Notes: generated from the letters alone by a model not told the origin. 64,000 bases of DNA from Kiritimatiellia bacterium (GCA_031552845.1 JAVBMC010000046.1:863-64862); one strand, 5' to 3'; positions 27,601-31,159 are shown, counted from the first letter of the stretch. Numbers and translations are program-made.

Positions 27601-30600
27601 AACCTGCGCATTGATTAAACAGACCGACCCGGATAACAAAGTGACCATCAGCAACACGTACAATACATTGGGACAGGTGACAAATCAAATCTCGGCCATC
27701 GGCCAGCCTTGGCGGTTTGGTTATATCGCAGGCACGGCAGCCTGGGACGAAGACCCGTTAGGCTATCGTTTGATGCAACATTATGATTCGGAAGGACGTG
27801 TTTTGCAACGTATCGATCGTGATGGCGGTGTGATTGAATATGTGTATGACGGGCATGGGCATCTGATTCGCCAGAAGGATCCGCTGGGACTTATCAGTTT
27901 ATTCAATTATGATCAATGGAATCGTTTGATTTCGCAGGAGGAAGAAACCGAAACGCTCAAACGCCGCAGTACCTTTGTTTATGATGATGCACACCATTTG
28001 ATTGAAACGACAAACACGTTAGGAGACGTCACAAAATTTGGATATGATGCCAAAAATAATCTTTCGTCGACCCATCATCCCGACGGAACACGGGTAACCA
28101 ATATTTGGACAACTACTGGCTTAGTGTCAACCAATCGGATTGTTTCATCAACAGGCCAAGTGTTGCTAGAGACGGTCAACACCCCTAGCGACACGGTTAA
28201 AGGGTTATCTATTAAAAAGACAGTGATCGGCGTTGGCCTACCGGTAGCGCTGGTAGAGACGTATACTTATACCAATGGTTTGATAAAAACCAAAGTTGAT
28301 GGCAGTGGGCAAACGGATAATTTCACTTACAATGCCCGCGGGCAAATGTTGACGCAATGGGATTCACTGAACAAGACAAACAAGTGGCAGTACAGTAACG
28401 CAGGACATCTCAAAAGCTCCACAGACAAACTCAACCGTACAACAACCTACCTACGCACAGCTTCCGGAGAGTTAGCCGCGATGGTTTATCCTGACAAAGG
28501 TGTTGTAACCAATATTTATGATGCTGTAGATCGATTGATTCGGACTAGGGATGCTCGAGGGGGTGAAACAGTCTATACGCGTGATGCGATGGGGCGGGTG
28601 TTAACCGAACAGACCGAAACCGGCACCACTAAGTTTGTATATGATGCCGTCGGCAACGTGACAAACACCCTGGATGGCGTTAATATATCAACCCGCACCA
28701 TTTACGATACCTTGTATCGCCCCATCGGCTTTTATGACGGCGCCAATCATTTATGGCAGACAGGGTACGACCTCGCTGATCGTTCAGTTAGTACCGTTGA
28801 CCCATTGGGTAAAACTCGAAAGACTCTCTATGACGCAATGGGACGTGTGATTGCAACAGTCAAGCCTTCTTGCACTACAAATAGTTTTGGTTATGACGAT
28901 TTGGGCTTCCAGACCACTTATATCAATGCCGAGGGCAATGTGTATACAATGATTTATGACGCATTGGGACGAAAAATTGCCGTAACGAATGCATTAGGCC
29001 AGCAGATGTTCCGTGGGTACTATGACGGATCCGGCAATTTGACCAATAGCATCGATGGTAACGGAACGATCTCCATACGCGTTTACGATAAGGTCGGACG
29101 GTTGCTCTTCCGCGATCTACGCCGAGGCACTGAAACAGCCGGAGAACGGTTTACGTATGACGCTGTCGGTAACATTCTCACGGCCAGCAACCTCACCTCT
29201 AAGATTACTACGACGTTCACATACGATACGATGAATCGCCTTATTTCGGCCACCAATCATGTGCCTGCTGAGACGATGTTGAAATTTGGCACAGTCTATC
29301 GCCGCGATGTGAGTGGGCTGGTCACGAACATCCTCTATGCCGCTGGTAAATCTGTCACAAGGCAGTATGACCTCGCTGGACGTTTAGTGAGTGTAAGCGA
29401 TTGGTTGGGTCATACGTGGACATTCACTTATGATGATGTGGGTCGATCCACGGGGGGGACGTCGCCAGGTAATATCGACCACAGCTTTAGCTACGACAAT
29501 GCAGGTCGCCTGAAAGCTTGGAATGTCGGAGGAACTATTGCCGGGCGCACGATTGAACGCGATGCTGCCGGGAAGCGGATTCAAGATACCGTTATCGGCA
29601 CTATCACGAATAATTCCAAGGCAAGCCGTTATGGCCACTACACTTTTGACAAGGCGGATCGCATGGTCTCGGGGAACGCCAAAGTCAATTTAGAATTGCC
29701 TGACCACATTTCAGGTCATAAACCGGACACTCCATTGCCCGAACAGTATGATTATGATGGTAATGGCGCCTTGACAAATATTGCCCAATTCGGACGTGGA
29801 GGATCCGCCAAAATTGAGTATACCTTGCAAGGCCAGCTACAATTTGTTAATCAGCGTAATATACGACCTTCATCGCTACGGACCTATGATGCGTTAGAAA
29901 ATACTGTGGTGTTTGAGGGGGGCATCCATACAACTGACCACGCCGATCCATTTAAACGCCCGTTGGTGTCCTCGGATTTAGAGGGGGTGCCGAACCAGTA
30001 TTACATTTGGGGAGAGGGACGACTTTTGGGGTTCATTGATTCCAATGGTACGCTCACGATCGCCCATTCAGACGAGCAAGGCAGTATCGTTGCATGGACT
30101 GATCTCAATGGTAATGTAGTGAATTCCAACCCAACTCCCTTTGATTGGCTTGGGGGTTATGGTGTGCGCCGTATCAAAACGGTCTCTCCTGTGGGTTCGG
30201 TGACCTATTCCTTCTATGCCACGCGTTACCGCGTTTACTCAGCCACTCATGACCGGTTCATTTCGCCTGATCCCCTCGGACTAGACGGCGGTTTGAATCT
30301 TTATATGTATTGCGAAGGCAATCCCTTGGCCTATATAGACCCGTTGGGGTTATGTGGAAACACAACAATGGTGACAATTGGGGTTCAAGCTGCGGTGGGT
30401 ATAGGAGGTACTGTGAGTCTCGGTGCGGCATGGGATAGCAATGGAAATAGAGGTCTCGTTTTTTCAGTTGGACTGGGGACGGGGGTAGATGTAGGCATTC
30501 CTGTCAAAGTAGTTGACCGTTTTGTGGAAACTGCTATCACCGCCCTGTCGAAAATGTCCTTCCACCCAGGTACCCTCGACGACATGAGGGGATGGAACGT

Positions 30601-30754
30601 TACTGCCTCTGCGGCTGTTCTTCTGGGGACACATTTTGACATGTCTGATATAATTGGCAGATCAAAACCCGAAGCAGGCAGAGTAACCGGAGTACATGTC
30701 GGTTTTGGCGGTGGAGTTTACGTGACGCGCACCTTCATAATTCCCTTGCCATAA
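24665..30754 (+). CDS. RHS/YD-repeat polymorphic toxin with transglutaminase-like N-terminal domain and Gly-zipper C-terminal domain
   Basis: 2029 aa with a signal peptide. Dozens of YD repeats (YDAVGN, YTYD..GRL). RHS core with DP.GL cleavage motif (AYIDPLGL, D at 30338). A ~133-aa variable C-terminal domain (30353..30751) rich in G...G motifs. Confidence 0.9.
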   Translation: MKFFWKLLIVCCYFAVTLQAQESESPSGWLISVADSEIPPLSDWPQVSVPSKPPLSVRSKATAAANRLMATSQQAPERVLPTVLDLGLQQTLPASDMALIKELARGLDYDWEKCYYFVRNHINYVPCGGIMRGPERTLLDREGNDADQAFLLLALLRASGYTATILHVPLTQVSGQPTQGFCVPIANQNGELVYNAADWLGGKSFNSLQEAGDGVAQCLQIAKRSLRGITDTATGIRMIVTDHFWVSLTLDGETKWLDPSFKPVRRTSVRSILDDMGYQRNSLLQSANGVVNPNSVSNLTFNGIKTQLGLCVDNLRTLWADTNINASAYVGKVEIVEQTDSEYFHGSVFGTPSDFLAKSQTDKNGFRVPMKLNVSISGPSANLYLDEVGPRRLWVSYVSGSGSTGYKTALKLDTITLAEASAASTAIDETMTLEVNYFSTKHSANYSFKRALTSAYAIVVGFGGDHRDGMRVWTAEQLANLRVTAPASDIQLVAASLQVAGHQWLAQTAMMRSFRNKVFNYNRQQFYNIGVAGQASSPYVDVRNSYSYTPDDVQDLDGGMLFSSALEHAVLDQLNGTNRPAVSTIKVLELANTAGVPVYFATSANYATIRGSLLNYTTDQLASFATAVGAGRKLLVPRDARIRLKDWTGYGYIEQGPASIGNQTYTTSMAIGGGFAGGYAAVDNFVLDPPPAVLDHSILPNAATPEMTQADPVTMPAGAYIDSSTDIADIGAVPVIWTRQYDSRKRYANGPLGRGWIHNYEASVTLSSDPDAIFGHASLEAVLPTVVAMAAVEDMLAKQKTALTSGEQAKCWMVAALTVQWWVSRFVDATAVVNLGNKTLSFQARTTGKPQGEEAVVYVPYPGVTATLVKKPLEKRLHLIERLGATFCFDETKSNRLAEIVHSAGSHTELKYDTSGKLSIITNSSSRTALSVKWNTANRIVGVTNCFKAGVGYTYDSKGCLTQAKDALGQSWISTYDPVTCALIKQTDPDNKVTISNTYNTLGQVTNQISAIGQPWRFGYIAGTAAWDEDPLGYRLMQHYDSEGRVLQRIDRDGGVIEYVYDGHGHLIRQKDPLGLISLFNYDQWNRLISQEEETETLKRRSTFVYDDAHHLIETTNTLGDVTKFGYDAKNNLSSTHHPDGTRVTNIWTTTGLVSTNRIVSSTGQVLLETVNTPSDTVKGLSIKKTVIGVGLPVALVETYTYTNGLIKTKVDGSGQTDNFTYNARGQMLTQWDSLNKTNKWQYSNAGHLKSSTDKLNRTTTYLRTASGELAAMVYPDKGVVTNIYDAVDRLIRTRDARGGETVYTRDAMGRVLTEQTETGTTKFVYDAVGNVTNTLDGVNISTRTIYDTLYRPIGFYDGANHLWQTGYDLADRSVSTVDPLGKTRKTLYDAMGRVIATVKPSCTTNSFGYDDLGFQTTYINAEGNVYTMIYDALGRKIAVTNALGQQMFRGYYDGSGNLTNSIDGNGTISIRVYDKVGRLLFRDLRRGTETAGERFTYDAVGNILTASNLTSKITTTFTYDTMNRLISATNHVPAETMLKFGTVYRRDVSGLVTNILYAAGKSVTRQYDLAGRLVSVSDWLGHTWTFTYDDVGRSTGGTSPGNIDHSFSYDNAGRLKAWNVGGTIAGRTIERDAAGKRIQDTVIGTITNNSKASRYGHYTFDKADRMVSGNAKVNLELPDHISGHKPDTPLPEQYDYDGNGALTNIAQFGRGGSAKIEYTLQGQLQFVNQRNIRPSSLRTYDALENTVVFEGGIHTTDHADPFKRPLVSSDLEGVPNQYYIWGEGRLLGFIDSNGTLTIAHSDEQGSIVAWTDLNGNVVNSNPTPFDWLGGYGVRRIKTVSPVGSVTYSFYATRYRVYSATHDRFISPDPLGLDGGLNLYMYCEGNPLAYIDPLGLCGNTTMVTIGVQAAVGIGGTVSLGAAWDSNGNRGLVFSVGLGTGVDVGIPVKVVDRFVETAITALSKMSFHPGTLDDMRGWNVTASAAVLLGTHFDMSDIIGRSKPEAGRVTGVHVGFGGGVYVTRTFIIPLP

Positions 30755-30787
30755 TCTTTCTGTATAATTCAAAAAATAAAGGTTGTT

Positions 30788-31159
30788 ATGCATTCCACTT
30801 ATCAAAAGCCTCAAGTCTCTAAGTTTATATTTCTCAAATATTATAGTATTCTTCAAATACCATTGGCGTTGATTATGTTTTCATATTTGATTTCAGAATT
30901 TTTTTCTGATCATGAAGGTTATTTTCTCTATTTTTCATTAGTAATGTTTTTTCTTTTCTTTCTAGTACGAGTATTGTTTGGAGTTCTTTATTACATTATC
31001 TATAGAATGCTTCAGCGCAAAGAATGTGGTTTTACATGCTATATCCTCCTGTTTATATGCCTGTTTGATTTTGTGCTCGGCACGTTACTTGCAGTCTATA
31101 CCCTCTATCGGCTATTTACGAGAAAGACTGACGTTAATGCCAAAGTCGAGCTAAAGTAG
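30788..31159 (+). CDS. Small polytopic membrane protein; candidate immunity protein for the RHS C-terminal toxin
   Basis: 123 aa with 3-4 predicted TM helices. Lies immediately downstream of the toxin. Local GC is ~30% against ~60% in the flanks. Confidence 0.6.
   Translation: MHSTYQKPQVSKFIFLKYYSILQIPLALIMFSYLISEFFSDHEGYFLYFSLVMFFLFFLVRVLFGVLYYIIYRMLQRKECGFTCYILLFICLFDFVLGTLLAVYTLYRLFTRKTDVNAKVELK

Follow-up and report, generated by a model that had tools for sequence, protein, structure and literature searches.

A gene for a large RHS protein in the window (the whole 64,000-nucleotide stretch of DNA analysed here) ends in a glycine-rich tail and is followed by a small, AT-rich open reading frame (ORF). 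This arrangement raises the question of what the tail does, and whether the ORF behind it encodes the antidote. The first-pass annotation had suggested a membrane-targeting toxin/immunity pair with a tail resembling glycine-zipper bacteriocins. The reading that we favor, with a probability of about 0.6, is an RHS toxin/immunity module in which the toxin is a membrane-inserting β-hairpin domain and the antidote a membrane protein (Table 1).

Table 1. Coordinates of the RHS locus and its surroundings in the window
Feature	Position	Strand	Details and basis
LamG (Laminin_G_3) gene 1	19426-20412	+	Pfam E 1e-15; context only
LamG (Laminin_G_3) gene 2	20376-21479	+	Pfam E 2e-13; context only
Bacterial TSP3-repeat protein	21510..24668	+	1052 aa; Pfam TSP3_bac E 4e-72
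RHS ORF	24665..30754	+	2029 aa
RHS protein, residues 1-1896	24665..30352	+	Signal peptide, DUF6531 plug, RHS/YD repeats, Rhs-associated core
DPLGL/C candidate aspartyl autoproteolysis site	30341..30355	+	Motif coincides with Rhs_assc_core model end
C-terminal toxin domain	30353..30754	+	133 aa and stop; phmmer relatives, alignments A1/A3, local HMM
Predicted β-hairpin 1	30386..30502	+	Tail residues 12-27, 33-50; AlphaFold2, pLDDT 66-84
Predicted amphipathic α-helix	30503..30550	+	Tail residues 51-66; AlphaFold2; joins the two hairpins
Predicted β-hairpin 2	30590..30748	+	Tail residues 80-95, 111-132; AlphaFold2 and periodicity
Spacer	30755..30787	+	33 nt, AT-rich (21% GC); sequence read directly
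Candidate immunity ORF	30788..31159	+	123 aa; ORF, hydropathy, position
Terminator-like hairpin	31285..31318	+	AGCCCCGCAG-ATAA-CTGCGGGGCT, then TTTTTATTGG; terminator scan

The RHS protein begins with a Sec-type signal peptide (MKFFWKLLIVCCYFAVTLQA/QE, read from the sequence) and carries a DUF6531 plug at residues 711-770 (Pfam, E 1e-13), RHS repeats in 12 stretches (Pfam RHS_repeat, E 6.8e-60; NCBIfam YD_repeat_2x, E 1e-55) and, at residues 1850-1896, an Rhs-associated core (NCBIfam Rhs_assc_core, TIGR03696, E 9e-15). This core closes with ...PDPLGLDGGLNLYMYCEGNPLAYIDPLGL, its IDPLGL ending at residue 1896. Alignments with RHS shells in the PDB run to the same DPLGL, and in the solved structure 8qjd, the construct of the S. 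bongori Rhs core stops at the aligned IDPLGL. Since the core ends at DPLGL, the tail comprises residues 1897-2029 (30353-30751), exactly the ~133 residues that the first-pass annotation had placed after the motif. The protein therefore has the PxxxxDPxGL core end and variable C-terminal domain by which RHS polymorphic toxins are recognized. Based on work on the RHS family (Tse5 D1141A, PMC10684867), we infer a cut after L1896, whose codon ends at 30352, and before C1897, whose codon starts at 30353, at the junction ...ISPDPLGLDGGLNLYMYCEGNPLAYIDPLGL/CGNTT; both DPLGL motifs are present in the protein with their Asp residues.

Two LamG genes (19426..21479) lie upstream in the same-strand gene block, as does the gene for a TSP3-repeat protein with a signal-like sequence at its N-terminus. 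The stop of the TSP3 gene overlaps the start of the RHS gene by 4 nt (ATGA), and the same overlap is found at the related locus L018. The terminator-like hairpin, with a stem of 10 pairs of which 8 are G-C (a consensus match only), probably closes the RHS operon ahead of nusA. The host probably belongs to the PVC group and is a diderm, and no T6SS genes were found within the window.

An exhaustive phmmer search of 1.84 billion representatives revealed seven distant relatives of the tail (E 3e-7 to 4e-4), which match nearly the whole domain (tail residues ~5-133) at 33-37% identity. Six of the seven sit after an RHS DPxGL end, a placement seen in P0002, P0004, P0006, P0007, P0008, P0010, L014 and L015. 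The only non-RHS protein among the seven, P0005 (323 aa), carries the domain as its C-terminus. Its N-terminus resembles a double-glycine leader (...ALFKINGG/AE), and its operon encodes Peptidase_C39-ABC, HlyD and OEP proteins; this putative leader is read from the sequence pattern and the neighboring genes, and matches none of the NCBIfam leader models. The domain occurs without RHS in P0005 and therefore appears to be a self-contained secreted toxin module.

With a local HMM of the domain, every locus is hit at E 1e-39 to 2e-48. Ten positions are invariant (G10, G18, G34, G40, G42, G44, D77, G92, G119 and G120; alignments A1 and A3), and the family motifs are WDxxGNxG, GxGTGV and GGGVY. D77 is the sole invariant polar residue, with D28 and D96 near-invariant in alignment A3. 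The tail has no match above threshold in Pfam, NCBIfam or PHROGs; a PDB profile search with the tail gave no match, and Foldseek comparison of its model with the PDB and BFVD gave TM-scores of 0.32 or less. Neither Ntox33 nor Ntox25 fits. Ntox33 (PF15533) gave a weak hit in one of nine members (E 0.036-0.1; 13.5 bits against a cutoff of 28.4); its motifs are [DN]xHxxK and DxxxD, an H-K-D triad (PMC3482391, PMC9424270), whereas alignment A3 has no conserved His or Lys. Ntox25 (PF15530) has no match at E<=1 in the nine members, and its FGPY is absent from alignment A3. The earlier view that the tail is neither nuclease nor deaminase is in keeping with these results, as no known enzymatic family or fold was matched. 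Judged by these searches, the tail is a new and rare toxin-domain family, present in no curated library.

The AlphaFold2 model of the tail (pLDDT 69.8, medium confidence, from a 9-sequence alignment) predicts four strands and one helix. In predicted hairpin 1, a hydrophobic face (AVIGVLAW / RLFVLTVVI) would lie opposite a Gly/Ser/Thr face (QAGGTSGA / GVSGGGDGP), with the conserved WD-x-x-GN turn at the tip. The family-mean hydropathy of its two strands gives mu180 values of 1.17 and 1.98 versus mu100 values of 0.20 and 0.39; for the helix, mu100 is 1.19 versus a mu180 of 0.05. Predicted hairpin 2 contains the GGGVY motif and a near-invariant FD at its tip, and its C-terminal strand is modeled with pLDDT 72-85. 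All four Gly-rich segments display β-type (180-degree) hydrophobic alternation throughout the family, and among 5000 shuffles just 5 reach the value of the window's tail. The strands contain 8% charged residues versus 23% elsewhere, and 23.5% Gly versus 10%. The domain is also hydrophobic, with a GRAVY of +0.44 in the tail (+0.24 to +0.47 in all members) versus -0.27 for the RHS core. The tail is thus probably built, according to the model, of two long and strictly amphipathic Gly-rich β-hairpins and an amphipathic helix. We note, as counterpoints to a membrane reading, that soluble β-sandwiches also have amphipathic strands and that no 19-residue stretch of the tail is as hydrophobic as a helical transmembrane (TM) segment.

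The downstream ORF exists as the first-pass annotation had described it, with three hydrophobic segments (about residues 20-40, 45-72 and 81-107; Kyte-Doolittle) where 3-4 TM helices had been claimed, and with the basic loops QRKE and RLFTRK. An SD-like AAGG (30779-30782) lies 5 nt ahead of its ATG, and the ORF is also called independently in Logan's copy of this contig. Its only match among 5.8 billion proteins is itself, and the case for an immunity role is therefore one of position, size and topology. These three features recur at related loci: all eight with readable downstream DNA (L001, L002, L014, L015, L016/L017, L018, L019 and L021) have a small polytopic membrane ORF immediately behind the toxin gene. 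Including that of the window, these ORFs encode 104-133 aa with 3-4 hydrophobic segments, and start 5-57 nt past the toxin stop or overlap it; in the P0005 operon, a 104-aa TM ORF comes next. Seven downstream ORFs form one homologous, unannotated immunity family (alignment A7; hhalign E 8.7e-13; HMM E 1e-30 to 2e-57) with a PPPFPVP loop and the motifs RRRR-x-FC and P-IGT-x-IGI. The window's ORF matches this family in size, position and topology without detectable homology: hhalign against A7 aligns 30 columns in the last TM segment at E 0.33, and the family HMM gives no hit at E<=10. In sequence terms it is an orphan relative to the family accompanying most relatives, and it is likely the antidote of the tail. 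Because a membrane-protein ORF follows the toxin in every readable locus, the toxin/immunity reading is supported, and the target is probably the membrane. The candidate pairing suggested earlier thus holds up, linkage included, since the ORF adjoins the toxin gene in all readable homologous loci.

The same annotation had seen a ~30% GC island within ~60% GC DNA as a sign of horizontally shuffled toxin/immunity tips. There is indeed a dip, to 31.6% across 30755-31159 and to 25% in the lowest 200-nt window, but its flanks are at 48-50% upstream (RHS) and 58-61% downstream (nusA/infB). The tail itself is at 50% GC, and the dip is therefore confined to the downstream ORF. From its own amino acids and the codon usage of the RHS core, this ORF would be expected at 35.6% GC, versus 32.5% observed. 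Consequently, amino-acid composition accounts for most of the dip, and we do not take it as a mark of shuffling.

Could the tail instead be an α-helical glycine-zipper toxin, its helices packing through GxxxG into a channel of the CdzC/CdzD, TspA/EsxX or VacA type? Some depolarizing zipper toxins do come with membrane immunity proteins (PMC12744356, PMC5380434), and the tail is rich in Gly (16.5%, versus 8.8% in the RHS core) and Val (14.3%), with GxxxG occurring five times and [GAS]xxx[GAS]xxx[GAS] seven times. However, five GxxxG motifs are no excess over same-composition shuffles (mean 3.4, P=0.23), with small-xxx-small motifs at the borderline (P=0.05), so that the earlier description of a tail dominated by G...G repeats stands for its glycine content and fails for GxxxG enrichment. 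None of the Kyte-Doolittle windows of the tail reaches 1.6, and no glycine-zipper Pfam model (Gly-zipper_Omp, Gly-zipper_YMGG, Rick_17kDa_Anti) matches the tail or any of nine relatives at E<=1. The periodicity is 180-degree rather than 100-degree across the family, the model has strands in these segments, and the conserved GxGxG (G40, G42, G44) places its glycines on one strand face. Similarly, Tse4 was at first described as a glycine zipper and later modeled as a β-barrel (PMC11630599, PMC12169545, PMC3482391). We therefore consider the zipper likeness improbable.

We also regard as unlikely a toxin working at the membrane without forming a pore, for instance as an enzyme or binder whose membrane-embedded target might be lipid II, undecaprenyl phosphate or, as a receptor, a transporter; the polytopic immunity protein would then shield that target or tie up the toxin. 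Toxins that form no pores, such as colicin M (with Cmi) and receptor-dependent class II bacteriocins, likewise come with membrane-bound immunity. Moreover, a new fold leaves room for another activity, and D28, D77 and D96, the only polar residues to be conserved, could serve in catalysis or bind a metal. Against this, none of the His, Lys, Arg, Glu, Ser or Cys residues that most hydrolases and transferases need is conserved in the toxin-family alignments, and the strands are nearly uncharged with a polar face of mostly Gly, which is unusual for the surface of a soluble enzyme. Ionophore families of the Ntox25/Tse4 type are similarly divergent, at 29-39% identity (PMC11630599, PMC12169545, PMC3482391) versus the 31-37% found here. 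It is very improbable that the tail is no toxin at all (for example a plug or anchor of the RHS shell) and the downstream ORF a chance ORF whose T-rich codons mimic TM segments. The ORF's lack of homologues would fit, and AT-rich DNA does translate into hydrophobic sequence when second codon positions are T (GC2 = 0.24). Yet the domain is also found in P0005, a non-RHS exported protein with a dedicated exporter beside it, and at orphan RHS tips within arrays. When the AT-rich stretch was simulated 5000 times with a Markov-1 model, 123 or more codons without a stop appeared only 11 times. The ORF is on the same strand at 33-nt spacing, with an SD-like site before it and a terminator-like hairpin after it, and a gene of like size and type occupies the same place in 8 of 8 related loci.

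The favored reading, a membrane-inserting β-hairpin toxin with a membrane antidote, can be compared with known systems. Tse5-CT of Pseudomonas aeruginosa (149 aa, Rhs-encapsulated) depolarizes cells and forms ion-selective pores (PMC9637101, PMC10684867), and Tsi5, a two-TM inner-membrane protein, protects against it (PMC9637101). Common to Tse5 (RhsP1, PA2684) and the window protein are the Rhs shell with its DUF6531 plug, DPxGL aspartyl autoproteolysis (here predicted from the motif), an encapsulated hydrophobic C-terminal domain of ~130-150 aa with no predicted enzyme activity, and a small integral inner-membrane immunity protein (here a candidate) encoded alongside. In contrast, Tse5 has a PAAR-like N-terminus and VgrG4/H1-T6SS delivery, whereas the window protein starts with a Sec signal peptide, is partnered by a TSP3-repeat gene and lacks nearby T6SS genes. 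For Tse5-CT, TM and amphipathic helices are predicted, and for the tail β structure; Tsi5 has two TM segments versus three here. In sequence and profile searches against PDB chains, the RHS core end alone matches Tse5, and the tail gives no match. The ionophores Ntox25 CdiA-CT and Tse4, predicted β-barrels rather than helical zippers (PMC11630599, PMC12169545), resemble what is predicted for the tail: small, mostly-β, non-enzymatic polymorphic toxin domains that dissipate the membrane potential.

P0005 recalls double-glycine-leader (class II-type) bacteriocins through its leader-like sequence and C39-peptidase ABC exporter operon, although it is far larger than classical class II peptides, and the window copy differs in being RHS-borne with no C39-ABC exporter nearby. 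Pore-forming colicins are neutralized by an adjacent small, helical, polytopic inner-membrane immunity protein (~110-180 aa), with 3 TM segments in the E1 type and 4 in the A type. As proposed for the tail, colicins attack the cytoplasmic membrane from its periplasmic face (insertion is summarized in PMC11630599). However, their pore domains are 10-helix bundles of ~200 aa, whereas the domain described here is predicted to be β-rich with 120-135 aa, and they have no sequence or fold match to the tail.

In the mechanism that we propose, the RHS protein would be exported via Sec, its YD-repeat shell enclosing the last 133 residues until a cut after DPLGL frees them. The freed hairpins would enter the cytoplasmic membrane of the target cell and act non-enzymatically. 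Four strands cannot close a barrel alone; inserted hairpins might oligomerize into an ion-conducting β-structure, which would collapse the membrane potential. In the producer's own cytoplasmic membrane, the 123-aa polytopic protein would block the toxin. RHS polymorphic toxins are an already well-known class of weapon, and the toxin/immunity pair is a new family within this class.

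The RHS protein opens with a Sec-type signal peptide, read from the sequence (MKFFWKLLIVCCYFAVTLQA followed by QE), and carries a DUF6531 plug and 12 RHS-repeat matches in Pfam, together with YD repeats found by NCBIfam. The Rhs-associated core model of NCBIfam stops at residue 1896, where the sequence reads ...ISPDPLGLDGGLNLYMYCEGNPLAYIDPLGL and continues with CGNTT, and the alignment of solved RHS shells reaches the same DPLGL. The tail therefore spans residues 1897-2029, and the position and length assigned to it in the first-pass annotation prove exact. Compared with the core, the tail is glycine-rich (16.5% vs 8.8%) and hydrophobic (GRAVY +0.44 vs -0.27), with 14.3% valine. 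It ends in ...IIPLP, without the extension P[DN]PERIR[TN]LPA[YF]GWRP that three relatives keep after the toxin domain (the C-terminus of P0004 and loci L014 and L015).

Profile and fold searches for an enzymatic toxin connect the tail to no known family or fold: there is no above-threshold match in Pfam, NCBIfam or PHROGs, and none in a profile search over all PDB sequences. A weak match to Ntox33 was rejected, since its H-K-D motifs are missing (PMC3482391). Plasmid and phage tblastn gave no match, neither the tail nor the RHS core end retrieved a close relative in scans of genome collections, and a word-indexed search of 5.8 billion proteins with the tail alone gave no homologue. Relatives were detected only when 1.84 billion cluster representatives were scanned exhaustively with HMMER, which returned the tail protein itself and 7 relatives (33-37% identity, E 3e-7 to 4e-4, near-whole domain aligned); 5 further sequences or loci came from a profile search and from scanning metagenomes. 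By these sequence searches, the tail family (8 clusters in 1.84 billion representatives) and the immunity family that accompanies it are unannotated and rare. The domain keeps the toxin position: among relatives with known upstream sequence, an RHS DPxGL end precedes it in P0002, P0004, P0006, P0007, P0008, P0010, L014 and L015. The GC content of the related loci ranges from 34% to 57%, and the families are therefore spread over compositionally very different genomes. Both IF-2 and the window RHS protein form singleton clusters at 90% identity, so that the source organism has no close sequenced relative.

Features of the window and of loci carrying tail relatives
Locus	Feature	Coordinates	Remarks
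Window	Secreted-type proteins with PATR (autotransporter-associated) repeats, LamG, DUF2341	4184-7513 and 8910-10613	Large
Window	HU-HIG/DUF4469 genes (HU-like DNA-binding + Ig-like)	16625-17638 and 42198-42908	Two paralogues
Window	TSP3-repeat gene	21510-24668	Overlaps RHS start codon (24665) by 4 nt (ATGA)
Window	RHS ORF	24665..30754	+ strand; 2029 aa
Window	Tail	30353-30751	133 aa
Window	Candidate immunity ORF	30788..31159	+ strand; 123 aa; three hydrophobic segments; AAGG 5 nt upstream
Window	86-aa ORF	31181-31441	Between candidate immunity ORF and nusA; spans hairpin; no family match; probably not a gene
Window	Terminator-like hairpin	31285-31308	3' of candidate immunity ORF
L001 (P0007)	Downstream ORF		At least 94 aa; runs into contig end
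L002	Downstream ORF		126 aa
L014	Downstream ORF		126 aa
L014	Extended toxin	77-571
L015	Downstream ORF		129 aa
L015	Extended toxin	215-1168
L016 (Logan SRR26820272)	P0005 operon	1-5283	34% GC
L016/L017 (P0005)	Downstream ORF		104 aa; overlaps toxin stop
L018 (P0004)	Downstream ORF		133 aa; full-length RHS
L018	TSP3 gene and RHS start	626-1672 and 1669	Same 4-nt overlap as in window
L019	RHS-CT with hydrophobic tail, plus 88-aa TM ORF	1-1067	Different RHS-CT
L019 (P0006)	Downstream ORF	2497-2853	118 aa; public gene call (2511-2843) in wrong frame
L021 (P0003; NCBI GCA_028698525.1)	Orphan RHS tip (…DPLGLCGDDDW…)	851-1711	After immunity gene
L021	Downstream ORF		119 aa

The small membrane ORF that the first-pass annotation described after the tail is present, and its linkage extends to the homologous loci: wherever the downstream DNA is readable, a small polytopic protein directly follows the toxin. 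The contigs L003 and L020 end before such an ORF could show and stand outside this count, as does the contig sequence of P0010, where a 265-aa gene lies 31 nt downstream of the toxin. Seven of the downstream proteins are homologous to one another and make up a single family (hhalign E 8.7e-13 between subgroups; HMM E 1e-30 to 2e-57), whose common motifs are a PPPFPVP loop, RRRR-x-FC and P-IGT-x-IGI. The window ORF and the L016 ORF share the size, position and hydrophobic pattern of this family, but neither matches its HMM, and their hhalign E-values are 0.33 and 0.13, respectively; for the window ORF, BLASTP did not reach significance either. A colinear “basic loop - C - TM - GT..Y.LY.L” resemblance between the window ORF and the family lies below significance. 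We therefore find that the linkage is conserved, while the window's partner is an orphan. Loci L019 and L021 are arrays of RHS tips.

The first-pass annotation had also read a ~30% GC island inside ~60% GC DNA as the mark of a shuffled toxin/immunity tip. The dip is real (31.6% over 30755-31159), but its flanks stand at 48-50% in the RHS gene and 58-61% in nusA/infB, and the tail itself is at 50%. GC3 is 0.43-0.55 across the same-strand LamG-LamG-TSP3-RHS-ORF block (18440-31160) and 0.69-0.75 in nusA, infB, rbfA, mscS, ilvD and purL (31600-38600); the whole operon is compositionally atypical, the tip not alone. Given its own F/L/Y/I/K-rich residues and the codon usage of the RHS core, the ORF is expected to have 35.6% GC; the observed value is 32.5%. 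The island thus mainly reflects the composition of a membrane protein in an operon that is atypical to begin with, and a separate horizontal origin is rejected as the main explanation, as amino-acid composition accounts for most of the dip.

The sole exception to RHS linkage is P0005, a 323-aa non-RHS protein whose N-terminus (...EEITGNALFKINGG before AE) appears to follow a double-glycine-leader pattern; the NCBIfam leader models gave no match to it. Its gene stands in L016 after those for a Peptidase_C39-ABC exporter, an HlyD protein, a TolC-like OEP protein and a 155-aa lipoprotein, and is followed by the 104-aa TM ORF. The arrangement amounts to a large, bacteriocin-type use of the tail domain. 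Since two different delivery systems employ it, the domain is an exported toxin module in its own right.

The overlap between the TSP3-repeat gene and the RHS start codon recurs in the unrelated metagenomic locus L018, which suggests that the two genes are conserved as a pair with coupled translation. A weak YD-repeat-like stretch (aa 1001-1023) closes the window's TSP3 protein. The PATR, LamG and TSP3 proteins, along with weak Amuc_1099-type matches, suggest that the DNA comes from the PVC superphylum. LamG and TSP3-repeat partners accompany the RHS gene; there are no T6SS genes in the window.

AlphaFold2 reached a pLDDT of 34 from the single sequence and of 69.8 with a nine-sequence alignment, and the latter model predicts two long hairpins and a linking helix (strands 12-27, 33-50, 80-95 and 111-132; helix 51-66). 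Hydropathy periodicity, computed independently of this model, alternates with period two in the family average of all four strand segments (mu180 0.93-1.98 vs mu100 0.05-0.72) and is reversed in the helix (mu100 1.19, mu180 0.05); the beta moment of the window tail is reached by only 5 of 5000 shuffles. The strands present V/I/L/F/W/A on one face and G/S/T on the other, with charged residues at 8% of strand positions (23% elsewhere) and glycine at 23.5% (10% elsewhere). The Gly-rich segments therefore resemble amphipathic beta-strands with a glycine-lined face rather than GxxxG helices.

In sum, we consider the tail and the window ORF a toxin/immunity pair, with a probability of about 0.85. 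That the tail is not a toxin and the ORF spurious is very improbable: the ORF has no homologue among 5.8 billion proteins, but Markov-1 simulation of the AT-rich stretch gave a stop-free run this long in only 11 of 5000 cases, and the locus has a single further copy, Logan SRR23967709, whose gene call includes the ORF as well. A membrane target is somewhat favored, and within it a beta-pore specifically is a tentative reading. Its main rival, to which we give a clear minority share of the probability, is a membrane-proximal, non-pore activity using conserved Asp residues. An Asp (D77) is among the ten invariant alignment positions, the other nine being glycines (G10, G18, G34, G40, G42, G44, G92, G119 and G120), and FD stands beside WDxxGNxG, GxGTGV and GGGVY among the family motifs; no His, Lys, Arg, Glu, Ser or Cys is conserved in the alignment. 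The helical glycine-zipper version proposed in the first-pass annotation is improbable: the tail does contain five GxxxG motifs, but their number is expected from its glycine content (shuffle mean 3.4, P=0.23), and the segments are predicted strands. [quoted passage not shown]

Under the pore reading, the RHS protein would be exported by Sec and the tail released by autoproteolysis between L1896 and C1897, by analogy with Tse5, in which the D1141A substitution prevents both release and insertion into the membrane (PMC10684867). The two hairpins would then enter the cytoplasmic membrane of the target, where oligomers may form an ion-conducting structure that dissipates the membrane potential, and the producer would be protected by the 123-aa inner-membrane protein neutralising the toxin. 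Pore-forming colicins with 3-4-TM immunity proteins set a precedent. Others are Tse5-CT with Tsi5 (PMC9637101), Tse4 (PMC12169545), and the Ntox25 and helical CDI ionophores (PMC11630599). Taken further, and rather unlikely as a whole, the data could describe a new class of miniature beta-pore toxins. In this reading, copies of a four-strand, glycine-lined protomer would assemble into an ion-conducting beta-barrel in the cytoplasmic membrane of bacteria, which normally contains no beta-barrels; RHS shells and GG-leader/ABC bacteriocin export would each have taken up the domain independently, in distant phyla, and the small helical membrane proteins that counter it would belong to at least two or three unrelated families.

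In its organisation the system follows the usual plan of RHS polymorphic toxins, with a probable immunity gene next to the toxin; this kind is already known and no surprise to specialists, and the tail is a new domain family. Tse5/Tsi5 (PMC9637101) is the closest functional analogue of the whole system, and Ntox25 and Tse4 (PMC12169545; PMC11630599), as predicted beta-barrel ionophores, are the closest architectural analogues of the tail; sequence tests place the tail in none of the Tse5-CT, Ntox25/Tse4, glycine-zipper or Ntox33 families. As a candidate membrane toxin the tail is clean and cheap to test; its predicted beta design is unusual, and it has two modes of delivery.

RHS, CDI and T6SS toxin tips are a main source of new antibacterial activities, but few of them depolarise membranes, and most of those are helical (Tse5, CdiA-CT EC93 type). 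Should the pair prove to be one more ordinary polymorphic toxin and its immunity protein, a handful of hypothetical proteins would chiefly gain an annotation. A compact ~125-aa family outside all curated libraries would extend the short list of candidate beta-type ionophores (Ntox25, Tse4) by an easily tested member that combines a conserved beta-hairpin architecture with two routes of delivery and a membrane immunity family co-evolving with it, and would offer a small model for the insertion of beta-structure into the inner membrane and its block by a helical membrane protein.
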